A stretch of DNA of 64,000 bases from Gemmatimonadota bacterium (GTDB lineage Bacteria > Gemmatimonadota > Gemmatimonadetes > Palauibacterales > Palauibacteraceae). Positions 4,496 to 53,921 of the stretch are shown piece by piece; the stretch's first letter is position 1; each line of letters opens with the position of its first letter. The stretch is from assembly GCA_965116475.1 (NCBI GenBank), contig OZ220691.1, positions 3,488,001-3,552,000 of the forward strand. The letters run 5' to 3'. The position numbers and the translations under genes were made by a program. A model generated the notes under the pieces. That model ran no database searches. It was not told the origin of the DNA and saw only the letters and a list, made by a program, of their open reading frames with translations.

Positions 4496-5421
4496 CATTT
4501 CTCGGAACGGCTTCCTCGCGGCCGACGGTGTCGCGGAACGTTTCGTCGCTCGCGCTGAAGCGCGAGGGGCGGTTGTTTCTCCTCGACTGCGGCGAGGGGA
4601 CGCAGCGGCAGATGATGCGCTACGGGGTGGGCTTTTCCATCGGAGACATCCTCGTCACGCACCTCCACTCCGACCACTACCTCGGGCTCGCGGGCCTGCT
4701 CCGCACGATGAGCCTCCAGGGGCGCGAGGAGCCGCTGCGGATCTGGGCGCCGGGCGGCGCGGGCGAGACGCTCCGCGCGCTCCGGGATCTGGGCGGGGAC
4801 CGACTGGCGTTCGACGCGACCGTGCACGAACTGCGGGCGGGCGAGGCGGTGGAAGGGGAGGGCTTTCGCGTCGAGGCGTTCGCGACCGAGCACACGCGGC
4901 GCTCGCTCGGATTCGCCCTCATCGAGGATGCGCGCCCCGGGAGGTTCGACGTGGCGGCGGCCCGAAAACTGGGCGTCCCGGAAGGCCCGCTCTTCGGGCG
5001 ACTGCATCGCGGCGAGAGCGTGGACCTCGAGGACGGCCGGCGCATCCGCCCCGGGGACCTCGTGGGTCCTCCGCGGGCGGGCAGAAGGGTCGTGTACACC
5101 GGGGATACGCGTCCCTCTCCGGAAACGGTCCGGATCTCGCGCGACGCCGACCTCCTCGTGCACGAGGCGACCTTCACGGAGGAGGAACGAAATCGGGCGC
5201 GGGAGACCGGCCACTCCACGGCCGCCGACGCGGCCGGGGTCGCCCGCGAGGCGGGTGTGCGGCGGCTCGTGCTGACGCACGTCAGCGCCCGCTACGCCGA
5301 GCGGCCGGCGCAACTGCTCGAGGAGGCGCGTGCCGTCTTTCCGCGGGCGGAACTCGCGCGCGACGGCTGGTCCACCGAGATCTCCTTCGATGACGCGGAC
5401 CCGGGAGATCCGGACCCTTGA
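4492..5421 (+). CDS. rnz: ribonuclease Z
   Basis: FLGT, DCGEGTQRQ, THLHSDH, GP-rich exosite, YTGDT, HEATF, LTHVSARY. Confidence 0.95.
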   Translation: MTFLGTASSRPTVSRNVSSLALKREGRLFLLDCGEGTQRQMMRYGVGFSIGDILVTHLHSDHYLGLAGLLRTMSLQGREEPLRIWAPGGAGETLRALRDLGGDRLAFDATVHELRAGEAVEGEGFRVEAFATEHTRRSLGFALIEDARPGRFDVAAARKLGVPEGPLFGRLHRGESVDLEDGRRIRPGDLVGPPRAGRRVVYTGDTRPSPETVRISRDADLLVHEATFTEEERNRARETGHSTAADAAGVAREAGVRRLVLTHVSARYAERPAQLLEEARAVFPRAELARDGWSTEISFDDADPGDPDP

Positions 5422-35480: not shown

Positions 35481-37403
35481 GTGAGCGAGGGCGCAAAGGA
35501 GGGCGTGAGCGAACGGCGCGGGATCGTGATCGGCACGGCCGGCCATGTGGATCACGGCAAGACCGCCCTCGTGCGGGCGCTGACGGGGATCGAGACGGAC
35601 CGCTGGCTGGAGGAGCGGAAGCGGGGACTGACGATCGACCTGGGCTTCGCGCGGCTCGACCTCGATCCCGGCCTGGAGACGGGGATCGTCGACGTCCCGG
35701 GGCATGAGGACTTCCTCAAGAACATGCTCGCCGGCGCCACGGGCATCGACGCCCTCCTCCTCGTCGTGGCGGCGGACGAAGGGCCGATGCCGCAGACGCA
35801 CGAACACCTTGCGATCGCGCGTCTCTTGAACATCCGGCGCGGGGTCGTCGCGCTTACGAAGCGCGACCGGGTGGATGAGGACTGGCTCGAGCTCGCGAGC
35901 GAGACGACCCGGGAAGTGCTGGATGAGGATCCCGCGCGGGCGTCATGGGAGATCGTGCCGGTCTCCGCCCTGACGGGCGACGGGATCGAGCCCCTGCGGG
36001 CCGCGCTGCGCAGATCGACGGCGGGGATCCGCGCGCGCCACGTCGATGACCGTTTTCGCCTCCCGGTCGACCGTTCGTTCTCGATCCGCGGTACCGGTAC
36101 CGTGGTGACCGGCACTGTGTGGAGCGGCGCCGTCCGCGTGGGCGACACCGTGAACGTTTTTCCCGGGGGTGACTCGGCCCGCGTGCGCGCGCTCCAGGTG
36201 CACGAAGACCCTCGTCGGCGCGTCACCGCCGGCCGCCGGTGCGCCGTCGCACTCGTCGGCGTCACGCCGGTCGCGGTGGAGCGGGGCAGCGTGCTCGTGG
36301 ACCCGTCCGAGTGGACGCCGAGCGAGCGTCTCGGCGTCCGGGTACGGGCGCTCGGGAGTCGCGACCGGCCTCTCCACCATGGACAGCGTCTCAGGGTCTA
36401 CCTGGGCACTCGTGAAGTCATGGCCCGGCTCCAAACGGTTGATCGCCGGCCCGTCGCACCCGGGGCGACTGCCTGGGCCGTGCTTGCCCTCGAGGCGCCG
36501 CTCCTCGCGCGGACCCGCGACCGGGCCATCCTCCGCTTCTACTCGCCGGTGACGACGATCGGCGGGATACGCGTGGCGGAACCGAACCCGCCGCCCGACT
36601 GGTCGGCGCGGACGGAAGCCTGGCGGCGGATTCTCGATGGCGCCCCGGCCGAGGCGGTCGGCGCGGCCGTAGCGCTGGAGGGCCTGCGCGGGCTCCCCGT
36701 CGCGACATCATCGATCCGCCTCGGATGGCGAGCTCCCACGCTCGAGACGGCCGCCGAGGAGGCCGGCTGCGTGCGCATCGGCGAGCGCTGGTTCGCCGCC
36801 GATGCGGTGGCGGAGGCCATGGAGGTCGTGGAGGAAAGCATGGCCCGCCTCCACGCCGCGGACCGCCGTGCCCCCGGCGTTTCGAAGGAGGCCGTGCGCT
36901 CGGCGATGGCGCCGGTCTGCGATCTCGCACTGGCGGAGACCGCCCTCCGCCGACTCCTCGCGGATCGTCGCCTCCTCGAGCGCGGCCCGCAGCTCGCGCT
37001 TCCGGGCCATGGGCCCCGCCTCACTCCGCGCGAGGAAGAGGGGCGCCGGCTACTCGCCGGGACGATCGAAGCCGCCGGGCTGCAGCCGCCGCTCGTCACG
37101 GAACTGGGGAAGACGGTGCACCTGGACCGTGCCGTGCTCGATGACCTTCTCCGGCTGCTGCAGGAATCCGGCATGACGAAGGCCGTGACGCCCGAACTGC
37201 ACGTCGCCGCCGGGGCTCTGGAGGCGATGGAGGCGCGGGTGCGAGAGCTGCTCGCCGATGGCGCGCCGGCCCCTCCCGCGCGGTTCAAGGAAGCGTTCGG
37301 GCTCTCCCGGAAGTACCTGATTCCGCTCCTCGAATACCTGGACCGGGAAGGCGTGACCCGTCGAACCGCGGAAGGGAGAGTTCTCGCCCGCCCGCCCGGC
37401 TGA
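35481..37403 (+). CDS. selB: selenocysteine-specific elongation factor (start may be GTG 35505)
   Basis: [31 protein letters not shown]-terminal [14 protein letters not shown] winged helix. Confidence 0.95.
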
Positions 37404-38427: not shown

Positions 38428-38795
38428 GGGGGCGACACGGCTTCGACGCGTGAACCGGAAGCCGCGGAAGCGTGCCGAGGTGCCCGGGGCCTCGTTAAAC
38501 ACCGGGAAACCTTTAGGTGCCAACGACGGTTTGGCTCTGGCTGCGTAAAACCACGTAGCCCGTCCCCGAGAGGTCCGGGCCCGAGGACCTCCCGACGGAC
38601 GTCGATGAATCGGGCTGGTCACCCCGGCGTGCCGTGAGCCGCGGGTGACGAGAGCACGGCGAGAGCCGCGCGCACGGCTGGTTTCGCAAGGGTTTGTTCG
38701 TGAACCCTCGCGGGACGAGACCTGATCACGGACTACGCACGTAGATGCCGTGGCGGATGGGCTCGCGGACGCGGGTTCGATTCCCGCCGCCTCCA
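38428..38795 (+). ncRNA. ssrA: tmRNA, tag peptide (A)ANDGLALAA* at 38519-38548
   Basis: 5' GGGGGCG pairs with 3' CGCCTCC-A including G3.U; T-arm GCGGG-TTCGATT-CCCGC; tag ends in ALAA; CCA not fully encoded. Confidence 0.95.
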
Positions 38796-38823
38796 CTATT
38801 GCCATGAGTGCAGTGCTCCGCCC

Positions 38824-42730: not shown

Positions 42731-42826
42731 GGGAGCGGATGGTGACTGGTGTCGCCTGCGGTCTTCAAAACCGTTACGGGGCGTTCGCGCGTCCCGGGTG
42801 GGTTCGATTCCCACACGTTCCCGCCA
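42731..42826 (+). tRNA. selC: tRNA-Sec (anticodon UCA)
   Basis: 6-bp D stem GGTGAC/GTCGCC, anticodon loop CTTCAAA, long variable arm, GTGGG-TTCGATT-CCCAC, G discriminator + CCA; selB nearby. Confidence 0.95.
42811..42826 (+). repeat. att core, left copy (3' end of tRNA-Sec)
   Basis: CCACACGTTCCCGCCA, identical to 53400-53415. Confidence 0.92.
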
Positions 42827-42848
42827 GATCATTAGCGAAGTGCTCTTA

Positions 42849-42903
42849 TAACAACGATTTACAGATGTTCAAGCGGGCGAGTACCCCACCGGGTACCCCA
42901 AAA
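42849..42903. promoter_or_regulatory. putative IHF site and integrase arm-type repeats, left end
   Basis: TAACAACGATTTA (1 mismatch to WATCAANNNNTTR); GTACCCCA at 42881 and 42893. Confidence 0.6.
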
Positions 42904-42916
42904 GTGGGAGTGTGAC

Positions 42917-43423
42917 GTGTCCGTGAGATCGCCCCTCCAAGACCCTGGGTCTTTCCGTTCATGGATTCAGGAGATGATCGAGGTGACCGGATTGGAGTGG
43001 GAGCCGAAAACGGTCCATGTCGTTCTCGCAGACCTTCCCTTGATCGCGAAGGCGACGTACTTCAACGCGTGGTTGGCGGGCCAGTTCTTCCGCGAAGATG
43101 ATGTGGGGTGGCTCTCGTCGGTGATCAGCGACATCGACCTGGAGTGGTGGCCGTTCGAGGAGAACGACCTTGGCGTTCTCCGACACCAGATCGAAAGCCA
43201 CTACAACGGCCAGTTTCCGCAAATCATGAGTGCTGCGCACGCGGAATGGACTACGTTCGCCGCCGATGTCCGCATGGCCTTCATCGCCTGCTTCACTGAC
43301 CACGGCTGCCGACGTTGCCCACCTTGGTGCCAAGCTCTCCGAGACGAGCTGGAGGCACGTGCGAACCCCAGCAAAGAACCCAATGACTCGGAGGGTGAGC
43401 CGGAAGCGCCGGCCTCTGGATAA
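42917..43423 (+). CDS. hypothetical cargo protein (start may be ATG 42974)
   Basis: Only credible + strand ORF in the element; CAGGAG before an internal ATG; converges on the structural operon. Confidence 0.6.
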   Translation: MSVRSPLQDPGSFRSWIQEMIEVTGLEWEPKTVHVVLADLPLIAKATYFNAWLAGQFFREDDVGWLSSVISDIDLEWWPFEENDLGVLRHQIESHYNGQFPQIMSAAHAEWTTFAADVRMAFIACFTDHGCRRCPPWCQALRDELEARANPSKEPNDSEGEPEAPASG

Positions 43424-43427
43424 GGAT

Positions 43428-43838
43428 CTACCCGCGCTTTCGCTGCCGGTCTTCGAGGGCAACCTCAGGATTGAGCCGGCGGCGGTCGATCCCGGCGAAA
43501 GGCCGGGTCTCTCCCGGCTGACGCTGGATGGCCAGCCACAGATCCGCCGCAGCGCGCCCGTACTTCTTCTCCAACCGCCCGCGCTTCAGCGCCAGCCTGG
43601 AGGCCTCCCGGCAGCGAGCGCAGAGACTGAAGTCCGCATCCTCGCGTTCCCGACCGCACCGGCACAGGCCGGCGGCACGGCGTGCTGCGTGGCTCTCGGC
43701 GATCGTGCCTCGATACGTTTCCCGGCAGGTCTTGCAGTAGATCCCGTGGGTGGCCGGAGCGCCGCCGCAGTTCGCACACAACCCATCGCGTTTCCAGCTG
43801 CGTCTCTTGTCCCGCACCCAGTCTGCGGCGTAGCTCAC
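43428..43838 (-). CDS. basic Cys-rich zinc-finger protein
   Basis: CANC...CKTC and CRC...CARC repeats; GTGA overlap with the upstream gene. Confidence 0.7.
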   Translation of the reverse strand: MSYAADWVRDKRRSWKRDGLCANCGGAPATHGIYCKTCRETYRGTIAESHAARRAAGLCRCGREREDADFSLCARCREASRLALKRGRLEKKYGRAAADLWLAIQRQPGETRPFAGIDRRRLNPEVALEDRQRKRG

Positions 43839-44188
43839 CTCGTGCGGGCTGCGAGCCTGGCGGCCTCGCTCTTCACGAGCGCGGTGGCGATGGCCTGACT
43901 GACGGCCTCCACGCCCTCGATGGATGGCTCCAGCCACTCGTACTTGCCCCCCAAGTGCTCGGCGACCTCGAGGAACAGGCCGGGGCGTTTGCCGGCTCCC
44001 ACGCGGGCCAACGTCGTGCTCACAACTTCGTAGGAGATCGAGCGGGCGGTCACACCCGTGTCCCTCGCGATCCGCCTGCGGGCGAACCTGACGACCTCCT
44101 CGGCCAGCTCCTCAACGATCTTCTCGGACATGCGGTCGAGCGCCCGATGGTGCTGCCGGAGGTTGGACTCGAACTTGACCGGCGTCAT
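43835..44188 (-). CDS. HK97 gp10-like neck/tail-completion protein
   Basis: A..DTG...RSI, FLE, WLEPSI pattern; ATGA overlap. Confidence 0.6.
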   Translation of the reverse strand: MTPVKFESNLRQHHRALDRMSEKIVEELAEEVVRFARRRIARDTGVTARSISYEVVSTTLARVGAGKRPGLFLEVAEHLGGKYEWLEPSIEGVEAVSQAIATALVKSEAARLAARTR

Positions 44189-44619
44189 ATCCCCAGCCTC
44201 TCCCGGATCGCCGCCGCCGAGTAGACGCGCGACCGGAAGACGATCCCGGCGTAACGGTGGCGACCGGCGTCGGCGATGTCCCAGCCGCCGGCGAGGGTGC
44301 GCCACGGGCCGCTCTGCAGGTCGGAGGTTCCAAGGTGGAAGCCGCGGAAGAATCGCTGGATGGCCTCGCGGACTTGGGCGGCGTCTCCCGGATCCCGGAA
44401 GGTCTCGACGGTGACGGCGACGCGGGCCAAGTAGCCCGGACTTTGGTCGATGGTCTCGAGGTCGCGGGAGCCGCCATCCTCCACAATGACGCGGATCTCG
44501 TCGGAGGTCTTCTCGAGTGGGCGCGAGGGCTGGCCGACGATCACGGTCACCACGTAATCCCCCGAGAACGCGGAGTCCAAACCGTCCCGAATCGTGGCCA
44601 GCACCTCGGCCTCAATCAT
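44185..44619 (-). CDS. putative tail terminator-like protein
   Basis: 144 aa alpha/beta pattern; position among neck genes (inference). Confidence 0.45.
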   Translation of the reverse strand: MIEAEVLATIRDGLDSAFSGDYVVTVIVGQPSRPLEKTSDEIRVIVEDGGSRDLETIDQSPGYLARVAVTVETFRDPGDAAQVREAIQRFFRGFHLGTSDLQSGPWRTLAGGWDIADAGRHRYAGIVFRSRVYSAAAIRERLGI

Positions 44620-44956
44620 CGATCTCCAGCCAGACCCGCACCGTGCCGCCGCGCTGAGGCTCGGCCTCGACCACCTTCCAGATCCGATCTCCGGACTCGA
44701 GCGTCACGTCCTCGGCGGTGACGTCACCCGTCCAGTCGCTGGGCATGAGATGGGCGGAGGTCTTCGATCTGGTCTCGCCGCCCGGCTGGGCGTCCTCGAA
44801 GAAGCGCGCCGAGGTGACGATGGCGCGCGTCTCGCGTGCCTCCAGTAGCGTTCCGGACATCTCCCTACCCATGGCGTCCAGCGCACCGCGTTCGCGCCGC
44901 GTGAGGGTCGCGGGGACGCCCAGCGCCTCGATCAGCGCGGGAGCCGGGGCTCTCAT
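44612..44956 (-). CDS. putative head-closure (head-tail joining) protein
   Basis: 114 aa beta-rich, D.TLESGDRIWKVV; follows portal with ATGA overlap. Confidence 0.5.
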   Translation of the reverse strand: MRAPAPALIEALGVPATLTRRERGALDAMGREMSGTLLEARETRAIVTSARFFEDAQPGGETRSKTSAHLMPSDWTGDVTAEDVTLESGDRIWKVVEAEPQRGGTVRVWLEIDD

Positions 44957-45984
44957 GCCAGTCCCGCCTTCTCCAGTGCCTCATCCAGAGACAGGCCGCT
45001 CTCGACGAACTGCTTCAGCGCGCGGCCTCGGGCGGCGAGATCGGACGCGGCGAGACCGCCGAAGGAGAACTCCAGCGAGGTCTCCAGCACGCGGGCGATC
45101 TCGTTCTGGACGCGCACTGCGACCGGCGCGACGCCGAGGAAGACGAACTGCCGGTAATCCTCCCTGCGCGTGGTCCCGTCTCCACCCGGCATCACGAGCG
45201 AAGCCGGGACGCCTGCGGCGCTGGCCACGGTCGAGATCGCATCGCGCCTCAGCGCGATCAGCGAGTCCGGAGGGTTCGCGCCCAGCCTGGCTGGCACGAG
45301 ATCGCGCCGTGGCGCTGAACCCGCGTCGCCCCAGCCGCCAGCTACGGTCTCCGTGAGGACGGTGCTCCCCTTGGCGTCTCGGATGTCGTCTCTGAGCGTG
45401 TCGAGATCGCTTGTCTCCGGTCCCTGCGGAACCGGGAGGAGATGGGCCGCCACGCCGCCGGCTTCTTGGCCCAGCCGCATCTCGAGGGCCGAGAGGAGAT
45501 CTCCCGAGAGACCGGCCAAGGGCGACAGGCTGCGCCACGGCTCGGCTGCTCGCGGTGCCCACATGAGGTGGATGACCGAGTCGCGAGGCATCCATCGCGT
45601 CTGGATCTTCGACGGGGCGGACGTGGTGACGTGGTACCGCCACGACGCGGGAGACGGGCCGCCCCAGACCGTCCAACTGCTCGCCACCGACAGCATCGGC
45701 GGGACGTCGAAGGCCAGGACGATCTCTCCCTGCAGGATGAGCTCCCGGCCGACGAGATCCAGCACCTCGGGCGTCACCAGCATCTTGGCGAGTTCGTCGC
45801 CCTCGACCTCGGCCGATGACAGCGCCCTCGCCCAGAGATCGCCGAGCGCCTGTGCGGTCCCGGTCTCGTTGACGCGACCTGCTGGGCTCTCGGAGCCGGA
45901 CGCCGACGCGGCGATCAGAGAGACCAGCGCATCGGTGTACGAACTCCGAACTTCCGCCGTCTTCCGCTGCCACGGGAGCCTCAT
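44953..45984 (-). CDS. phage portal protein (short HK97-like)
   Basis: ELILQGE, DSVIHL, WRSLSPL, VASAAGVPASLV, V.PVA..VQNEI.R.L. Confidence 0.78.
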   Translation of the reverse strand: MRLPWQRKTAEVRSSYTDALVSLIAASASGSESPAGRVNETGTAQALGDLWARALSSAEVEGDELAKMLVTPEVLDLVGRELILQGEIVLAFDVPPMLSVASSWTVWGGPSPASWRYHVTTSAPSKIQTRWMPRDSVIHLMWAPRAAEPWRSLSPLAGLSGDLLSALEMRLGQEAGGVAAHLLPVPQGPETSDLDTLRDDIRDAKGSTVLTETVAGGWGDAGSAPRRDLVPARLGANPPDSLIALRRDAISTVASAAGVPASLVMPGGDGTTRREDYRQFVFLGVAPVAVRVQNEIARVLETSLEFSFGGLAASDLAARGRALKQFVESGLSLDEALEKAGLA

Positions 45985-46286
45985 AGCGCGAGACCTCGGC
46001 GCTTGACCCACTGAGACAGCAAAGACGCCGCGCCAGACGCTCGCAGGGCAGCTCTGGAGGCCGCGACGTACTCGGTCTCCACGTCACCCACCCGGACGCG
46101 CCTGGCGGCCGCTGGGGCGTCTCTTAGGTACGCCGCCACCCGGATCGCGGCTTCGTTCTCCACCGCCGCAGGCGGTTCTCCCTCGCCGGTGTGTTTCTCG
46201 ACAAGACCGGCGGCGACCTCGGCAAGACGCGTTGCGTTGTCACCTCCCCCGAGGGCCGAGGCCACCACCGATCGCTCTACAGCCAT
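45981..46286 (-). CDS. head-tail adaptor (HK97 gp6/SPP1 gp15-like)
   Basis: 101 aa helical; PPAAVENEAAIRVAAYL, SGAASLLSQWVKRR; CAGGAGG RBS. Confidence 0.65.
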   Translation of the reverse strand: MAVERSVVASALGGGDNATRLAEVAAGLVEKHTGEGEPPAAVENEAAIRVAAYLRDAPAAARRVRVGDVETEYVAASRAALRASGAASLLSQWVKRRGLAL

Positions 46287-47215
46287 ATGCGCCTCCTGCG
46301 GCGGGCCGGGCGCGTGATCTCCAGCGGAGCGAGTTCTCCCGTTTCGCCGGTCACCAGCGCCAGCTCGATTGCGCGGACGTCCATCTCGGAGACGTCGTAG
46401 AGGTCTCCCGCGACCTCGGCCACCGAGGTCTCCTCCGGTGCCCACGGGCGCACGCTCCAGAATCCCGTCTCGGAGGAATCGAGGAAGGCGCGTCCGGCGT
46501 CGTTGTCGGTGATCTGGTCGATCTCGATCCGGAGTTCATCGTCGAGAACCCGGAGCCTCAGTCCGGCACCGGTGGCGGCGACCGGCTCGGAGAATCTTCC
46601 AGACATGAACGCCGTGATCGTCCGCCGTCCCTCGGCTGCCTCGCGGAGCGCTTTGTCCAGCGCCTTCCGCCCGATGCGGATCCGCGCACAGCCGGTCTTG
46701 CACCTGCACGGCAGCTGGCGGCCCAGCGGCACCCGACCGGAGACCCGCGTCCCGCCGATCGTGCGCCGGCGCAGCTCCACCCGGTTCGGAAACACCGGCG
46801 AATCCACCAATCCCAGACCGAGGAGACGTCCGCGCTCGATGACGCGGACTCCGCCCTCGGTCTGCTCGCTCAGCGCATCGAACTCGAGACTCGTGCCCGT
46901 GAGCTTCCCGGCGGCCACCAGCGCTCGGATCTCGGGCGTGATCTGCGCGCGGAACTCCATGCCGCCGGCGGTGGTGTCCCGGAACCGGAGAGAGCCCTCT
47001 GGGTGGAAGCTGGAGTCGATCCCATGTCGGAAGTCGTGCTGGACGTTCAAGAGGACGCGCACCTCGGACGCTGGCCCGAACGCGCCGGGCTCGAACCGCT
47101 CCCCAAGGCCGTGCGGCGTGTTCGCGGGCGGGGCGGTGATCCCGGGATCGAACACCATCCCGGAGATCTCGCCGGCGTCCGCGCTCAGCCCGGAGACGAA
47201 ACGGAACTCGCTCAC
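46277..47215 (-). CDS. HK97-type prohead protease with a second protease-like domain
   Basis: ERFEPGAF, LNVQHD (His), GTSLEF (Ser), LGLVDSPVFP; C-terminal half repeats the pattern. Confidence 0.78.
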   Translation of the reverse strand: MSEFRFVSGLSADAGEISGMVFDPGITAPPANTPHGLGERFEPGAFGPASEVRVLLNVQHDFRHGIDSSFHPEGSLRFRDTTAGGMEFRAQITPEIRALVAAGKLTGTSLEFDALSEQTEGGVRVIERGRLLGLGLVDSPVFPNRVELRRRTIGGTRVSGRVPLGRQLPCRCKTGCARIRIGRKALDKALREAAEGRRTITAFMSGRFSEPVAATGAGLRLRVLDDELRIEIDQITDNDAGRAFLDSSETGFWSVRPWAPEETSVAEVAGDLYDVSEMDVRAIELALVTGETGELAPLEITRPARRRRRIWL

Positions 47216-47454
47216 CAGAGGGCGAGGATCGTGGCCGTCGAGGAGGCGCGCACCGCCGAGACGGCGACCGGAATCACCATGATCGACGCCGTCACTGTGA
47301 GCGCCGGCGCGTCCGCATCATCGTCCGGCAACCGGATCGTCAGATCGCCGTCGCTGAGGACGATGAACGCCCGCGCCGGGGGATCGAACACGCTCTCCTG
47401 CCCGGCGACGGTCGCCTCGCTCGCCTGCGCCGAGTAGATGGCCCAACGGCTCAA
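47212..47454 (-). CDS. head spike base / decoration protein, RcGTA Rcc01079-like
   Basis: 80 aa; PARAFIVLSDGDLTIRL...IPVAVSAVRASSTATILALW; TTGA overlap with the capsid gene. Confidence 0.6.
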   Translation of the reverse strand: MSRWAIYSAQASEATVAGQESVFDPPARAFIVLSDGDLTIRLPDDDADAPALTVTASIMVIPVAVSAVRASSTATILALW

Positions 47455-48692
47455 GTGACGAACTTCAGCCTGGCGAAGTTGGACGCCCGCGGGAGCTTGA
47501 ATCCCCAGCTGTACTGCAACGTCAGCGAGATCTCATCCGAGGCTGCCTTGGTGTATGGATCTCGAATCAGCCGGCCCTCCCGCCAGACGCACGCGACGCC
47601 GGCGTTCACGATCCCGCGCTTGCGTCCGATGAAAGCGCCGAACTTGCCGTTCGATGTGGCCGTCTCGATGTCGCCGCGCACCATCCAACTGAGGCCGTTC
47701 GCCATCAGGAATTGCCTCAGCGTCATGTTGTCGGCGGCCGAGTTGATGACGGTGGAGTGCCACAACGTGTTCGCGCCGACGGAGGCCACGATCGCCAGAT
47801 CTCCGGGGCTGGCGGCGTGCTTTCCGTCGATCAGCTCGGCGAACTTCACCAGCGTCTCCGGCCCCTTGATCTTGTCCGCCTGCTTGATCGTCTTCTCGAC
47901 CATGTCGGCGGCGGTCTGGAGACCGGTGATGTCGGCGGCGTTCTCGTTCGCCCCGTCGTCTCCCAGGAAGACCGCGCGGTCGATCCCCTCGGCCATCGCC
48001 ATCCGCAGATCGCGCCGGAGCGCCTGCTCGAGGCCGGGGATCCTGTCCGCGTCGACGCCGTTGAACACGGCGCGTGCGCGGTTGCCGGTCGGCTTGATCT
48101 CGGTGACGCCGATCGTCCACGCGGCGTCTGCCGCGTCCTCGGCCCGGCCGCGCTGCGCCGCCGAGGCCCCCGCCGTCGTGACCGGGTAGCTCGCGATCCC
48201 CGGCGCGCAGGAGGCGAACGTCACGCCCAGATGCATCGCGGCGGTGTCAGCGAACAGCCGGTCGATCCATGGGCGCTGGACGACCGTCGACTCGGCGTCC
48301 GTCGAGGCGCGAACCTCGGCTGGCGTCGGCTCGTCGAGAAGGAGCTCCAGCGGGAATGACCGGCGGCCCATGCCGAACGCGTCGTTCAGCTCGCCGGCGG
48401 CTCCGTCCACGCCGCGTCCGTCCATCGCGGCCTCGAAGTAGCCGCCCACGTCCACCCGGCGGCGAATGGCCCGGATCTCGGCCGCCTCGCCGTCCTCCAC
48501 TGTGGGCTCCGGCTCCTCGGCCTGCGCGGCGATCAGCGCCCGGCGCTTGGTCTCGACGGAGCGCAGCTCGGCGGTGAGCTTGTCCACCTCCTGCTGCTGC
48601 TCGTCGGAGAGATCTCCGGCGGTCTGGCCGAGATCGTTGAGTTGCTGCCGGAGCTCGGACGAACGGAGCTCGGCGCGTTGCAGATCGGTCAT
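47451..48692 (-). CDS. major capsid protein, HK97 fold with N-terminal delta domain
   Basis: Coiled-coil N-terminus; E.ALRRDL..AMAE.IDRAVFLGDDG...ITGL; LIRDPYT. Confidence 0.85.
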   Translation of the reverse strand: MTDLQRAELRSSELRQQLNDLGQTAGDLSDEQQQEVDKLTAELRSVETKRRALIAAQAEEPEPTVEDGEAAEIRAIRRRVDVGGYFEAAMDGRGVDGAAGELNDAFGMGRRSFPLELLLDEPTPAEVRASTDAESTVVQRPWIDRLFADTAAMHLGVTFASCAPGIASYPVTTAGASAAQRGRAEDAADAAWTIGVTEIKPTGNRARAVFNGVDADRIPGLEQALRRDLRMAMAEGIDRAVFLGDDGANENAADITGLQTAADMVEKTIKQADKIKGPETLVKFAELIDGKHAASPGDLAIVASVGANTLWHSTVINSAADNMTLRQFLMANGLSWMVRGDIETATSNGKFGAFIGRKRGIVNAGVACVWREGRLIRDPYTKAASDEISLTLQYSWGFKLPRASNFARLKFVT

Positions 48693-48810
48693 TCTCTCGT
48701 CCCTTCGCGCGGCCAGGCAGCCACGCTCCTTCCGGGACGAAGAAGGGCCGCCATAGCTCAGTTGGTGCGTTCTCCAATTCGCTAAGGCGACCCCGAAAGG
48801 TCTCCGCAAT

Positions 48811-49050
48811 TTAGGGTCCGGCCAGCTCCTCTACAAGCTGCCTCCAGCCGGCGTCTTCCTCCCGTCGGTGGCGGGCGAAATGGCACGAGACGCAGAGCGT
48901 CCGGAGGTTCGATGGATCGTCGGTGCCGCCGTCTCTCAGTGGCGTCTCGTGGTGGACCTCGAGCCGTCCTGGCTGGCCGCAGTCCCGGCAGCGGTGGCCG
49001 TCTCTCTGGAGGATCTTCCGGCGCAACTGAGCACCGGCGCGGCCTCTCAG
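48811..49050 (-). CDS. HNH endonuclease (terminase-associated); start codon unclear
   Basis: RDGHRCRDCG...LEVHH..PL..GG.DD..NL..LC..CH...H. Confidence 0.85.
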   Translation of the reverse strand: MRGRAGAQLRRKILQRDGHRCRDCGQPGRLEVHHETPLRDGGTDDPSNLRTLCVSCHFARHRREEDAGWRQLVEELAGP

Positions 49051-50519
49051 ACGACGGCGGATCGAAGTCTCCGAGACGGACGGGACCGACGCCGATGCGC
49101 CTCGGCGACGCACAAGGCCAACGCCACGGCGAGATCGTCTCTGCGCCGGAGGGTGGTACGGCGGATCTTGGCGTTCCCGGCCTCGTCCGTAGCCGTCTTG
49201 GCGTTCGCCAGGCACACCCTCAGGGCGAGATTCGTTGGTGCGGCCAGCCAGTCTGCAGCGGCAAGCCGGAGGCGGCGCAGATCGTTCGCGCCGTCCTTGA
49301 AACCCATCCCGCGCAGCTTCAGCGGCACCGACTGACCGAGCGTGGCCAACGCCTCGCGGATCGAGGCCTCCCGCCACCGGTCGGCTACGATCATCGCCGG
49401 GACGCCCCACCGCTCGAACGCCTCGGTCAGCACACCCCCGACATCGACCTCGAACGTCCCGTGCAGGGACAGCTCCTTCCTGGCTCGCATCTTCTCATAC
49501 AGGGAGCCGACGTTGTGCTCCTTTCCGCGCCGCATGAGGTCTGGATCTCGCGGGAAGACCAGAAAGCCGTCCGCGGCTCCCGTGGCCGGCCAGCAGACGG
49601 CCGCGCCGGTGGCCTGCGTGGTGGAGAGATCGAGACCGAGCACCGGGCGACCCGAGCGCAGCGCAGTCCGTCCCTCGCAGCGCGTCCACGTCCCGGCGGA
49701 CAAGACCTGCTCCTCGGCTACGCCGATCCCGCCGAGGTTCAAGTGGAGCTGCAGGTATCTGGCCAGCGCCTCGGGACTCTCTCTGGCCAGCTTCGCCTGC
49801 TTCTTCACCTCGCGGGCGAGGTGCGGCCAGAACTTCATCGATGGATTCGCTCTGTGCATGGCCGCCGCGCGAAATGGATCCTCGTCTTCCTCGGCCGCGT
49901 AGCAGATCGCCCGCTCCTTCTGGAGTTCGGCCTCGAAGGGATGGCCGGAGCCTGCCGGCGGTCGCGTCCCGGTGTAGATGATCCGCGCCTCCATCTTGGC
50001 CTTCGCCGTGTCGAGCGCGGCGATCATCTCGTCCACCGTTGGCCAGCTCGTGACCTCGTCGCAGACGATGAGCGCGGGCCGCAGACCCATGGCGCGCTTC
50101 GGGTCGCTTCCGATGGCCAACACCCGGCGGCCCGTCTTGAGGTCTCGGATCTCCGAATGCTGGAGGCTGTCGGCGATCCTGTACCGCTTCCGGTCTCCCA
50201 GCTTCACTACCTGCTCCAGATACCGGCGGGTGTCTTGGTAGACGATCCGCGTCTGCCGGTGGCTCGCGGCGACGAGAATGATGTCGGAGCCCTTCGGGGC
50301 TAGCTCCAGAACGGGATCGAAGTACGCTCCCGCCACGATTGACGCCCAAGCGCTTTTTCCGTTGGCGCGGGCCATGCTCAGCGCGAAGTCGCCGGGAGTA
50401 TCGAGACGCTTCCACGCTTTTCTCTGCCACGGCATCGGCTGGAGCGCCCTCCCGGCCATCGGACCGTCCAGAACGGTCAGACCAGATGCCCACCGGGAAA
50501 CCTTCGTCGAGGTCAACAT
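49047..50519 (-). CDS. terminase large subunit
   Basis: Walker A ARANGKS, Walker B LIVCDE, ANPS, nuclease VLGLDLS, ADRWR, DDLAVAL. Confidence 0.9.
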   Translation of the reverse strand: MLTSTKVSRWASGLTVLDGPMAGRALQPMPWQRKAWKRLDTPGDFALSMARANGKSAWASIVAGAYFDPVLELAPKGSDIILVAASHRQTRIVYQDTRRYLEQVVKLGDRKRYRIADSLQHSEIRDLKTGRRVLAIGSDPKRAMGLRPALIVCDEVTSWPTVDEMIAALDTAKAKMEARIIYTGTRPPAGSGHPFEAELQKERAICYAAEEDEDPFRAAAMHRANPSMKFWPHLAREVKKQAKLARESPEALARYLQLHLNLGGIGVAEEQVLSAGTWTRCEGRTALRSGRPVLGLDLSTTQATGAAVCWPATGAADGFLVFPRDPDLMRRGKEHNVGSLYEKMRARKELSLHGTFEVDVGGVLTEAFERWGVPAMIVADRWREASIREALATLGQSVPLKLRGMGFKDGANDLRRLRLAAADWLAAPTNLALRVCLANAKTATDEAGNAKIRRTTLRRRDDLAVALALCVAEAHRRRSRPSRRLRSAVV

Positions 50520-50618
50520 ACCGGAGGCTCTGCTGCAGAAGCGTGACTACGCCAACGGTGTCCGGCGGTCACGGAGGGCTCCGAACAGGGGTCCCCGAGG
50601 AGCTGGGGCGGGCCACAT

Positions 50619-51065
50619 TCATTCGCCCGGCAGGCGCGGTACGTAGACGGCCCATAGCCACGGCGCTCCGTCACGGCGCGCGGCCGTCACGCGATGTCGT
50701 CCAAGCAGCACTTCAACCGGGCGCGAACTATCGTCGCCCAGGACGACGATCGGCGGGCCGTACTGACCACCGGACAGGTTCTGGAGCCGCTTCTCGTCCA
50801 AGCGCGATACGTCGAATTCCATGATGCGAGTCAGCGGTAGCCCTCTCCTTGGGAGCGTCTCCGACATCGCCTCCATGATCCGCGTCTTCGTGTTGGCGAC
50901 AGCCGCCGCCACGTCCGGCCAGTCTTCAGCGGTAGTGTCTTGCTCTTCGAGGAACCACCGCTCCAACCGGCGAAACCAACGGAGCAATTCGTCGGCTTCG
51001 CAGTCTTCACCTTGCAGCCGGTTCTCCACTTGGTCCCGGTATCGGAGGATGCTGGTATTGGACAT
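50619..51065 (-). CDS. protein with a C-terminal ParB/Sulfiredoxin-like domain
   Basis: PPIVV...VLLGRHRVTAA resembles the PI.V...DG.HR..A motif; TGATG overlap. Confidence 0.6.
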   Translation of the reverse strand: MSNTSILRYRDQVENRLQGEDCEADELLRWFRRLERWFLEEQDTTAEDWPDVAAAVANTKTRIMEAMSETLPRRGLPLTRIMEFDVSRLDEKRLQNLSGGQYGPPIVVLGDDSSRPVEVLLGRHRVTAARRDGAPWLWAVYVPRLPGE

Positions 51066-51400
51066 CACCCCAGACCGTACTCGTCCCACGCATGGACGAT
51101 CTCGAAGAGCGCACCGATCTCAGACTTCGTGAGCGCCCGGAGGTCGTCCAATCCACCGTCACCTTCGACCGACTTTGGTATCAGACGCCCGAGTTCGCCC
51201 GCCCACTCCAGCAGCTGCGCGACCGACACGCCGTGCCGTTCACAGCGCCCGTACACGTAGTACACCTGCTTCTCGGTTGGTGACTCCGGGTGCAACGCAT
51301 TCTTCGCGATGATCGTCTTATCTGTGGACTCTACCGCATCCCGCCAGCTCCCTGTGGGCTGCCCAGAGCTGCCGTTGTCTCCCTCACGTGTCCCTGTCAT
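51065..51400 (-). CDS. hypothetical protein, first gene after the long leader
   Basis: Strong GGGAGGAG RBS before ATG 51400; PTEKQ and LTKSEIGAL motifs. Confidence 0.65.
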   Translation of the reverse strand: MTGTREGDNGSSGQPTGSWRDAVESTDKTIIAKNALHPESPTEKQVYYVYGRCERHGVSVAQLLEWAGELGRLIPKSVEGDGGLDDLRALTKSEIGALFEIVHAWDEYGLG

Positions 51401-51875
51401 CGATCTCCTCCCTCTCTCCAGTCGCCGGGGCGCACCTCTCCCTATTTTGTTCTCGGCCTCGCCGGTTCTCCCTCTAATTGTCTGAAGCGATGACCGGCCC
51501 GGTGAGGGACAGCAGCAGACCGAGGGCCAGCCCGGGCCGTTGCGAAAGGGAGGCATGGTTTCGTCTCCCACGGTATCCGAGTTGGTGTCTCGGCCTGCTG
51601 AACATGACCTGGCGGAGCCGGGCATAGCAGGCTGTGGGAGCTGCTTCCCTCCGGCCTCTCGACCGGAGCCAGCCGCCTCGCTCTCCCACTTCGACCTCGA
51701 GGCCTCATCTCGGCGCTATTGGCTGGATGCCCTTCCCGGTGCGCCACTCTCTCGCATTCCCGCGCCGGTGGGTGGACCCTCTCCTCCACGGTTCAGCGTT
51801 CCAACGATCCCACGCATAACACGACCGGCCGATTCTCGCCAATGGTTCGGTCAGCGTCGGAGGATGTGAATCATG

Positions 51876-51938
51876 GATGCAAGAAACCCCGAGACGAGAG
51901 GTCTTTTGGGAGAGCTTCGCCTCGGGGCTTCCTGCACC
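51876..51938 (-). other. 22-bp RNA hairpin downstream of the integrase (terminator or regulatory RNA)
   Basis: All four non-Watson-Crick positions are A.C on the + strand, i.e. G.U on the - strand transcript. Confidence 0.7.
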
Positions 51939-51973
51939 GGCCCAAGGAAGAATCCTCGAGCGCGTCCACAATC

Positions 51974-53197
51974 TCAGTCGCTTGTCACCGGCGCAACGTA
52001 CTCGGCCCATGCCTCCATCACCGGACGCCGACGCTCGAGGAGATCGCTGCGCTGGTAGGCCCGCACGACGGCGTTTCGCTCGACATGACCGAGGATCGCC
52101 TCGGCCACTGCGAAATCGACGCCCGTATCTTCACACCAACTGCGCATGGAGGTTCGCAAACCGTGCGGCGTGGCCGGGACGTCGAGACGCCTGAGGAGCT
52201 GGAGAAACGCCATCTTGCTGAGGGGCCGATCAGCGCCAGCGCGCGGGCGAGAGGAAGGGAAGACCCAACCGGTCCCGCCCCAGCGCGCCTGGGCGTCTTC
52301 TAGCACCCTCAGGGCGCAATCTGCGAGCGGTACGCGGTGAGACCTACCTGACTTCGTCCGGAGGCTCGGAATCGTCCAGATCGCGTTCTCCAGGTCGATC
52401 TCGTCCCACGTCATCTCTCGGACCTCGCCGGTCCGAACTCCCGTCAGCGCCAAGAACGTGAACGCCGAGCGCGTCACGCGGTCGGCGGTGGACGCCTCGA
52501 CCATCTCGAGCAGGCCGGCGATCTCGCTGTGGTGCAGGGCCGGGTGGTGACGCTTCACGCGGCTGGCGTGACGCGGCAGCACCGTGAGGAGGTGGCGGCC
52601 CGCCGGGTTGTCGGTTCGGTGTCCCATCGCGACGGCCATCTCGAACGTCCTGGCCAGCCGAGCGCGGACCCTCCGGGCGGTCTCCTGCTTCTCCTCCCAG
52701 AAGCCGCGGGCCTGAAGCACCCGCGCCACGTCGGCGGACGTCACCTCGTCAACGCGCATCGCGAGCAGCGGATCGGCGTATCTGGTCACCGAGTTTCGCC
52801 ACTGGCGCTCGCTATCGGGAGACCTCCAGCGGGGTTTCTCCCGGGAGATCACCGCCTCGAAGACCTCGCCCACCGTCGGGACGACCCCCTTCGGCTGCTC
52901 GGTGGCCGGAGGCTTAGCCTTCCGCCGGCGCGGATCCTCTCCGGCTTCGACCGCCGCGAAGTTCCGGAACGCCTGTTCTCGGGCCTCCCTGAGGCTCACC
53001 GCCGGCCACGTTCCCAAGCCGAGGGTGGTTTGCTTGCCGTTGATCTTCACCTTCTGTATCCACCGGCGTCTGGCGGTTCGGTCCGACGTGGGCCGGACGA
53101 GGAGTGAAAGGCCGGCGTATCCGACGGCGTACTTTCGTGGGCCGCCTAGCGTCCCGATCTTCTTCTCGGTGAGGCGCACCAAGGGGCGTTTCGGCAT
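51974..53197 (-). CDS. int: tyrosine integrase, P4-like with N-terminal arm-binding domain
   Basis: GLG.WPAVSLREAR arm domain; TGVRTGE, HRVPL, HGLR, ILGH, AYQRSD catalytic motifs. Confidence 0.95.
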   Translation of the reverse strand: MPKRPLVRLTEKKIGTLGGPRKYAVGYAGLSLLVRPTSDRTARRRWIQKVKINGKQTTLGLGTWPAVSLREAREQAFRNFAAVEAGEDPRRRKAKPPATEQPKGVVPTVGEVFEAVISREKPRWRSPDSERQWRNSVTRYADPLLAMRVDEVTSADVARVLQARGFWEEKQETARRVRARLARTFEMAVAMGHRTDNPAGRHLLTVLPRHASRVKRHHPALHHSEIAGLLEMVEASTADRVTRSAFTFLALTGVRTGEVREMTWDEIDLENAIWTIPSLRTKSGRSHRVPLADCALRVLEDAQARWGGTGWVFPSSRPRAGADRPLSKMAFLQLLRRLDVPATPHGLRTSMRSWCEDTGVDFAVAEAILGHVERNAVVRAYQRSDLLERRRPVMEAWAEYVAPVTSD

Positions 53198-53215
53198 GGG
53201 GATCTCCGTTCGCTA

Positions 53216-53347
53216 TGGGGTACTCGTGCCTGCGAGTACCCCAAAACATGCCCCAAGTACCCCAAACTCGCAACTCTAGAGGAGGCATGGAGTTCCGCAT
53301 GAACATCCGACAACAGGTTCCGTATAATACATGATATCAACGAGTTG
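53216..53347. promoter_or_regulatory. integrase arm-type repeats, putative outward sigma70 promoter and IHF site, right end
   Basis: AGTACCCCA once inverted and twice direct in 53216-53266; TGAACA-17-TATAAT at 53300-53328; TATCAACGAGTTG at 53335-53347 matches WATCAANNNNTTR. Confidence 0.65.
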
Positions 53348-53390
53348 TGAATCATCCAGAAGTCCAATGAACATCAAGGGATTCGCGATT

Positions 53391-53921
53391 GTGCGATCAC
53401 CACACGTTCCCGCCACCCTCGTGCTTGCGGCCGCGCTTCTGTCCGGGCTGGCCCTGGACCCGTTGCCGCTGCGCGCGCAGGATCCGCCGCCTCCCGTCGT
53501 CCCCGACTCGGCCGCCGCCGAAACGAGCCCTGTCGCCGACACGACGGGCCGGCGCCCGCCCATCTCCCCCCTCGGCGCCTTCGGACGCTCCCTGGTCCTT
53601 CCGGGCTGGGGACAACTGGAGGTCGGACGCCCCGCCCGCGGCGCTTTCTACTTCGCCGCCGAGTCCGTCTTTCTGTTCATGGTCTTCAAGTCCGACGCGC
53701 GGCTCTCCGCCGCGAAGGAGGAGATGCCGCCGAACGAAGAGCGGATCTCCAACCGCACGGGGCAGCGGGAGAACTGGATCGTTCTGGCCGGGTTCTTCGC
53801 CTTCCTGAGCGGCCTCGACGCCTGGGTGTCCACGCAGTTCTGGGACTTCGAGCCCTCGATCGGTCCGCCCGCCGATGGGTCCGTCGGGATCGCGCTCGGT
53901 TTCAAGGTCGATTTCCCCTGA
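53391..53921 (+). CDS. exported/membrane protein, DUF5683-like (start uncertain: GTG 53391 or 53421)
   Basis: Signal peptide-like N-terminus; SP..A..RSLVLPGWGQ; LDAWV. Confidence 0.7.
   Translation: MRSPHVPATLVLAAALLSGLALDPLPLRAQDPPPPVVPDSAAAETSPVADTTGRRPPISPLGAFGRSLVLPGWGQLEVGRPARGAFYFAAESVFLFMVFKSDARLSAAKEEMPPNEERISNRTGQRENWIVLAGFFAFLSGLDAWVSTQFWDFEPSIGPPADGSVGIALGFKVDFP
53400..53415 (+). repeat. att core, right copy
   Basis: CCACACGTTCCCGCCA duplicates the tRNA-Sec 3' end. Confidence 0.92.

Follow-up and report, generated by a model that had tools for sequence, protein, structure and literature searches.

We suggest that a small protein encoded in the genome of a Gemmatimonadota bacterium (Palauibacteraceae) is likely to be an all-beta jellyroll of the Rcc01079 spike-base family that caps the fivefold vertices of a capsid as a pentamer, and that it does so within an integrated island encoding tail-less heads. 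The DNA analysed here, hereafter the window, is the 64,000-nt stretch from position 3,488,001 to position 3,552,000 of contig OZ220691.1 (assembly GCA_965116475.1). The open reading frame (ORF) in question, which we call orf80, lies at 47212..47454 on the minus strand, directly after the gene for a major capsid protein, and specifies 80 aa from a TTG start. Rcc01079, after which the family is named, is the base of the head spike of the Rhodobacter capsulatus gene transfer agent (RcGTA).

The family assignment is carried by profile comparisons. The NCBIfam model NF048002.1 (spike base protein, RCAP_Rcc01079 family) matches orf80 at E 6.9e-5 with 23.1 bits, aligning residues 23-80 of the protein with positions 28-85 of the 85 in the profile, and it scores 23.4 bits against P0002, a close relative of orf80, which is 59 residues long and identical to it at 51 of the 59 (86%). 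An exhaustive phmmer search of orf80 against 1.84 billion representatives returned 12 matches at E<=1e-3, namely P0002, six short relatives of 83-99 aa with E-values from 3.9e-10 (P0124) to 2.2e-4 (P0131), and five long proteins. All six short relatives match NF048002, three of them above its curated cut-off (35.0, 28.8 and 43.1 bits). The long proteins (P0123, P0127, P0128, P0132 and P0133; 656-1554 aa, with 5-22 matched stretches) were left out of the alignments: P0123 was rejected as a tandem-repeat protein in which many weak repeat matches are summed, and P0128 as a repeat array ahead of an unrelated body, while the other three were excluded by length and number of matched stretches alone.

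A profile search with an alignment of the short relatives (A3) found 21 proteins, and the alignment designated A4 holds 22 sequences, orf80 being the first. Its members form one coherent family, with a motif PxRA-hydrophobic-x-V...G-D/N-L and a C-terminal motif V-R-x-x-S/T-T-A-T...L-W, and every one of the 22 matches NF048002 at E<=1e-3, the best at 2e-32. When the A4 profile is compared with the sequences of the PDB, only two are found at E<=10, and both are spike bases: 6tb9_E3, 'Head spike base Rcc01079' (84 aa; 6TBA, 6TSU and 6TUI contain it as well), at E 1.6e-12 and over nearly its full length, and 8cjz_h, 'Spike Base Protein', at E 1.1e-6. The Rcc01079 of RcGTA, itself a single all-beta jellyroll of 84 aa against the 80 of orf80, has in common with it the C-terminal motif ...V-R-x-x-S/T-T-A-T-x-x-x-L-W. 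The initial annotation of this DNA had remarked by eye on a likeness to Rcc01079 and had proposed a comparison with hidden Markov models (HMMs) of that family; the likeness is upheld by the NF048002 match, by the agreement of the whole of A4 with that model, by the PDB match to Rcc01079 and by the fold described below.

Given A4 as its alignment, AlphaFold predicts for orf80 a model of eight strands and no helix, with a predicted local distance difference test score (pLDDT) of 91.3 and a predicted template modelling (TM) score of 0.76; the first ten residues, which make up an N-terminal arm, are less certain (pLDDT 62). The confident model came only from the 22-sequence alignment, as a two-sequence alignment of orf80 and P0002 gave a pLDDT of 41.8. 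The translation in the ORF listing holds both stretches that the initial annotation had quoted as part of a beta-rich protein, PARAFIVLSDGDLTIRL and IPVAVSAVRASSTATILALW, and the predicted fold agrees with that description. In a Foldseek search of the PDB the top match is 6tb9_A1, a chain of 84 residues in the RcGTA capsid entry (TM 0.69/0.66, root-mean-square deviation 2.6 A over 74 columns, probability 1.00), which its length and entry indicate to be Rcc01079. A TM of 0.58/0.55 is reached by 8cjz_h, from the entry 'Carin1 bacteriophage mature capsid', and TM scores of 0.30-0.48 by the remaining listed PDB matches, for the most part cupins and domains that bind cyclic nucleotides. The Carin1 protein, the second solved member of the family, resembles orf80 both by profile and by fold; unlike orf80 it belongs to a complete phage, and our literature search found no paper describing 8CJZ. 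Among the predicted viral structures of BFVD, many tailed-phage proteins of 80-90 aa are matched (best E 6.8e-6, best TM 0.82), and the neighbours of the model in the ESM Atlas are clusters of 81-89 aa, mostly viral, with scores of 0.92-0.94. As modelled, orf80 is a single-domain jellyroll that superposes on the solved base protein.

orf80 is a real gene. Positions 47451-47454 of the plus strand read tcaa, that is TTGA on the minus strand, where the capsid ORF ends in a TGA that shares bases with the TTG start of orf80; positions 47212-47215 read tcac, that is GTGA, where the stop of orf80 overlaps the GTG start of the protease ORF at 46277..47215. Because of these two overlaps orf80 is coupled at both of its ends, and the 80-aa ORF and its TTGA junction with the capsid gene stand as they had been annotated, on the minus strand. 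The window has a G+C content of 69% and chance ORFs abound in it, and composition was therefore checked for each codon position: the values for orf80 at positions 1/2/3 (0.63/0.56/0.90) match those of the capsid gene (0.66/0.50/0.89) and the protease gene (0.69/0.52/0.87). An ORF of 401 codons on the plus strand (46232-47437), antisense to orf80 and the protease gene, also has high G+C at third positions (GC3). Over the orf80 segment tested, its first-position value is lower than its second-position value, and we rejected it as a gene and regard it as a shadow ORF of the kind typical of high-GC DNA. A word-indexed protein search with orf80 found itself and P0002 only. The longest contigs of P0002 and of P0004, a capsid relative with 84% identity, are both listed at 6801 bp, which suggests that the two lie on one contig, and hence that the pair of orf80 and capsid genes occurs in a second element. 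Judged by these identities (86% and 84%), the small protein would be about as conserved as the capsid protein.

The reading frame offers only two starts, the TTG at codon 1 and a GTG at codon 22. We prefer the TTG because a family HMM built from 20 members, with neither orf80 nor P0002 among them, aligns with residues 7-80 of orf80 (68.4 bits, E 2.2e-19), because residues 12-14 form a strand in the AlphaFold model, with a mean pLDDT of 96 over residues 11-20, because GC3 over codons 1-21 is 0.95, and because 25-45 residues precede the conserved PxRA motif in all other members of A4. The same evidence bears on the alternative that the product is a protein of 59 residues beginning at codon 22, or that no protein is made at all. 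An AGGAG stands 3 nt upstream of the GTG, no clear Shine-Dalgarno sequence stands ahead of the TTG, and P0002 was called from the position equivalent to codon 22; yet the residues that a short product would lack, from the seventh onward, align with an independent family model and are confidently modelled, and we consider this alternative quite improbable.

What the protein would do follows the RcGTA structure by analogy. As reported for that particle (PMC7296036), orf80 would assemble as rings of five copies, one on every fivefold vertex except that of the portal (eleven in all), on the capsid made from the neighbouring gene, with the flexible N-terminal arms clasping the axial domains of neighbouring capsid subunits. 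The layout of the operon is compatible with such a role, in that the TTGA coupling to the capsid gene together with a weak TTG start may yield fewer copies than there are of the capsid protein, as would suit a protein confined to the vertices. A place in the head module is also seen elsewhere, since the family member of Ruegeria phage Tedan (P67b_00087; 4959-5231 on L038) lies two genes past the capsid gene. Loss of rcc01079 is reported to lower RcGTA transfer by about two-thirds while leaving particle yield unaffected (PMC5026251), so that the role of the family appears to be helpful rather than essential, which fits a gene that is wanting from most relatives of the island.

A number of observations weigh against this reading. 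The 23.1 bits of orf80 do not reach the curated cut-off of NF048002, which is 28, and for this reason we describe the protein as a divergent and not a textbook member of the Rcc01079 family. As a single sequence orf80 retrieves no chain from the PDB (phmmer, E<=10), no family from Pfam or PHROGs, and no match by tblastn from 50,697 phage records; PHROGs labels the family 'tail fiber protein'; and the Foldseek E-value for 6tb9_A1 is no better than 6.3e-3. Compared with Rcc01079, orf80 has about 22% identity, a shorter N-terminal arm, which is also shorter than in most of its relatives (80 aa in all, against 83-99 aa), and no glutamate in the A4 column aligned with the cation-binding Glu12, which in RcGTA shares its cation with the capsid protein; orf80 has Ile6 there, in a part of the alignment that is uncertain. 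By sequence the capsid protein of the island matches neither that of RcGTA nor any other of solved structure, its profile finding in the PDB three weak coiled-coil (occludin) matches at E 0.28-0.94 and no capsid; the docking surface therefore need not be conserved. The shorter arm, the isoleucine and the dissimilar capsid all weaken the proposal that orf80 docks as Rcc01079 does. To these may be added the absence of the gene from related capsid loci.

We compared 37 such loci (L001-L037), taken with up to 7 kb on each side from named genomes of several phyla. None of the 37 carries a spike base (tblastn, best non-self E 0.031), and the capsid lineage therefore assembles without one. The family HMM, run over 8291 six-frame pieces of the window and the 37 loci, found nothing at E<0.1 other than orf80 and so no second copy in the window. 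Read by eye, the slot after the capsid gene is filled in various ways: a protease-like ORF follows directly in 17 loci, an ORF of 224 aa in three, a P-loop ORF first in nine, an unrelated small ORF (95 or 102 aa) in two, and six are ambiguous; Pfam was run on one protease representative and one P-loop representative only. Because no related locus has a spike base and the content of the slot varies, orf80 appears to be accessory, occupying a position in the head operon that is not filled in a fixed way. The P-loop ORF, of 143-162 aa (about 145 aa) with the motif GPAGxGKS, stands between the capsid and protease genes in L001, L009, L013, L017, L018, L021, L025, L030 and L031, and its tested representative, that of L009, has weak AAA_33/AAA_16 matches below cut-off. 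The small ORFs of L027 (7977-8264, 95 aa) and L033 (8253-8561, 102 aa) occupy the syntenic place and have a weak mutual likeness (tblastn E ~0.8-0.9); we rejected them as members of the spike-base family (hhalign probability <1%, no NCBIfam or Pfam match).

Of the 8000 candidates scored, at least 1183 are related to the capsid protein at E<=1e-5. Among 120 of these that were listed, two carry PF05065, and many of those listed are on contigs of ~10 kb (about 9-11 kb). By genome labels the capsid family occurs in Alpha- and Gammaproteobacteria, Longimicrobiales/Gemmatimonadetes, Acidobacteriota, Bryobacterales and Chloroflexota. One of the loci, L007 (9576 bp), has the layout terL-capsid-protease-portal, as in the island, and another, L026 (10992 bp), keeps the pair of capsid and protease genes but has an ORF of 1113 aa ahead of a portal-sized ORF. 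This capsid lineage may be a widespread family of head-only elements. The window flanks share no context with the related loci, tblastx giving just two short segments, both in L004.

In RcGTA the spike base does not stand alone. Its pentamer is reported to hold residues 2-10 of the fibre Rcc01080, a peptide in which isoleucine or leucine alternates with small residues (PMC7296036, PMC10218006), and base and fibre are both reported to be required for full adsorption (PMC7296036, PMC5026251). It is hence conceivable, if unlikely, that the orf80 base serves as the socket of a fibre that comes in trans, from a helper phage or a chromosomal gene, and whose N-terminal alternating peptide would plug into the pentamer and give the tail-less head an adsorption device of its own. 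The initial annotation had seen no fibre partner in the element, and this holds for the island and for the whole 64-kb window, where the N-terminal motif search and family scans found no fibre-like partner; any partner must then act in trans. The strict five-fold alternating N-terminal motif has no match in the six frames of the window, and a four-fold Ile/Leu/Val/Met-Ala/Gly pattern has one, within the terminase. A relaxed five-fold pattern beside a start codon picks out 11 ORFs, all of them off the island and by eye membrane, signal-peptide or internal segments, and the relaxed four-fold pattern gives internal matches only within the island, none at an ORF start. Phage genomes point both ways. 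The Tedan member (32.7 bits to the family HMM, no NCBIfam match) is overlapped at its end by an ORF of 39 codons (5228-5347) that starts with alternating isoleucines, to which nothing in the window is comparable; this ORF calls to mind the peptide with which the fibre of RcGTA plugs into the base pentamer, and it may be a minimal plug or a fibre stub. In Rhizobium phage RHph_Y25, on the other hand, a strong member (EVC10_072; 75.5 bits to NF048002) is followed by an unrelated protein of 130 aa and then by the terminase, with no fibre alongside, so that an adjacent partner is not universal in the family. A fibre-less cap, standing alone as a clamp or plug of the vertex, is as good a reading as a borrowed fibre or recognition of cells through the head, the two options that the initial annotation had put forward. 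Bolder still, and to our minds doubtful, is the idea that the island acquired a fibre-less spike base whose vertices serve as general-purpose sockets, capturing the fibre or adhesin of whichever helper phage or host is at hand; were it true, the satellite head would come with an adsorption device that belongs to it, can be exchanged and is distinct from the stolen tail.

Two further alternatives would take orf80 off the capsid altogether. That it is a small cupin-like moron or regulator with no structural role could be argued from the varying content of the slot that separates capsid and protease genes in the 37 loci and from the cupins among its weaker fold matches. These cupins stay at TM 0.30-0.48 against 0.69 for the RcGTA chain, the sequence profile connects only to the two solved spike-base proteins, and orf80 is translationally coupled within a head operon, all of which makes such a role very improbable. 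It is harder yet to credit the PHROG label of its family, by which orf80 would be part of a tail fibre. The label belongs to phrog_12296 ('tail fiber protein'), which matches the RHph_Y25 member (1.3e-17) and P0130 (9.7e-7), and the homologue in phage RcapNL is reported to carry the same annotation (PMC5026251). But orf80 itself has no phrog_12296 match at E<=0.01, the island has no tail genes, and both solved structures, by the names of 6tb9_E3 and 8cjz_h and by the description of the former (PMC7296036), put the protein on the capsid; given this location the label is likely an inherited mis-annotation. The phages with members of the phrog_12296 type (RHph_Y25 and Tedan) share the family with orf80 but are complete and possess tails, and homologues of rcc01079 had already been reported from Rhodobacterales prophages and from RcapNL (PMC5026251). 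We thus return to a vertex cap as the preferred reading of orf80, and turn to the element in which it resides.

The island measures ~10.6 kb (42802-53415) and is integrated at the 3' end of the selenocysteine tRNA gene (tRNA-SeC, 42731-42826), flanked by an imperfect direct repeat of 25 nt, D5. Its left attachment site (42802..42826, plus strand) is formed by the last 25 nt of the tRNA gene, and the right one (53391..53415, plus strand) is an imperfect copy of that 3' end, agreeing at 22 of the 25 bases. About 5 kb from this tRNA gene lies the region of selB (35481-37403), which encodes the selenocysteine elongation factor. The genes of the island are on the minus strand and are transcribed in the order integrase, two ORFs without a family, large terminase (terL), HNH endonuclease, capsid protein, orf80, protease, an ORF of 104 aa, portal, Hc1-type connector, an ORF of 144 aa, gp10-like protein and two more ORFs without a family; the order terL-HNH-capsid-protease-portal is unusual.

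At the far end, the tyrosine integrase (51974..53197) matches PF00589 at 1.2e-21, along with arm-binding and central domains, and phrog_1 at 4.8e-53. The large terminase (49047..50519) matches phrog_9 (2.5e-44), PF20441 and PF03354. The HNH endonuclease (48811..49410; PF01844 3.3e-12, phrog_589 2.4e-20), as listed, overlaps the end of terL and is a long ORF with low GC3, and its true start is probably later than listed. The major capsid protein (47451..48692) has 413 aa from the ATG at 48692 and matches the 'major head protein' families phrog_10 (8.4e-7) and phrog_617 (2.2e-5); the ORF as listed is 47451..48809, of 452 codons, and the window's own record, P0003, has 413 aa. The prohead protease (46277..47215) has 312 aa from a GTG start, including a C-terminal extension, and matches the HK97 prohead protease model TIGR01543 weakly (E 0.0063); it has 29% full-length identity (E 4e-24) to a protein of L003 (8261-9208) that matches Peptidase_S78 at 5.6e-14. 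The portal (44953..46011; PF04860 3.8e-10, phrog_12 5.5e-7), the Hc1-type head-closure connector (44612..44956; phrog_82 2.8e-5) and an HK97 gp10-like neck or tail-completion protein (43835..44305; PF04883 9.1e-5, phrog_5 1.7e-4) complete the recognised set.

At the thresholds used, neither Pfam nor NCBIfam assigns a family to the ORFs at 42917-43423, 43428-43937, 50619-51089 and 51065-51625, and the sole match among the four is a very weak one to a ParB-like PHROG (E 0.0096), given by one of the pair that lies between the integrase and terL genes. The ORF at 43428-43937 (minus strand, 169 aa) has several CxxC pairs and weak zinc-ribbon matches (E 0.02), and it could be a regulator of the island. 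Host housekeeping genes flank the island, with Mla transport and RidA to one side and metallophosphoesterase, thioesterase, LptE and Mrp antiporter to the other; the remainder of the window is of the same kind, and 38428-38796 holds a tmRNA gene. Family scans saw no tail or lysis (holin) gene in the island or in the 64-kb window, and the island leaves no space for a tail module. As head genes are present with no tail, lysis or fibre gene, the island probably makes tail-less heads that need the tail of a helper phage, after the manner of the phage-inducible chromosomal islands (PICIs) that form capsids.

In its content the island resembles those elements: like EcCIEDL933, for example, it combines genes for an integrase, terL and HNH with those for capsid, protease, portal and head-tail connectors, and it lacks genes for a tail and a holin (PMC10085698). 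It differs from capsid-forming PICIs in the order of terL, HNH, capsid, protease and portal genes, and scans of Pfam, NCBIfam and PHROGs recognised in it no AlpA-type regulator, primase-replicase or small terminase, which is why we do not class it among them. The accessible text of a preprint on the EcCIEDL933 capsid describes an asymmetric unit of four capsid proteins and does not mention a vertex protein. A literature search combining 'head spike', 'satellite' and 'capsid' returned only a review of phi29, which is no proof of absence from print. The arrangement also departs from that of RcGTA, where rcc01079 and rcc01080 are reported to stand apart, next to capsule genes, in a locus of their own (PMC5026251): orf80 lies inside the head operon beside the capsid gene, with no adjacent fibre gene, and the capsid it would cap has no detectable sequence similarity to that of RcGTA.

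The spike-base family is already known: NCBIfam curates a model of it and two of its structures have been solved, so that the protein as such is unsurprising. What is notable is its setting, in which a vertex protein of a gene transfer agent and of complete phages appears, without a fibre, in a small head-only integrated island; it is seen in this island and may be present in one close relative, while none of the 37 related capsid loci that we examined has it. Standard annotation would miss orf80, as its NCBIfam score is under the cut-off and neither Pfam nor PHROGs matches it. If the cap is indeed on the particle, it would allow one to ask whether satellite heads have their own means of adsorption or stabilisation, and whether a fibre is needed for a spike base to work.

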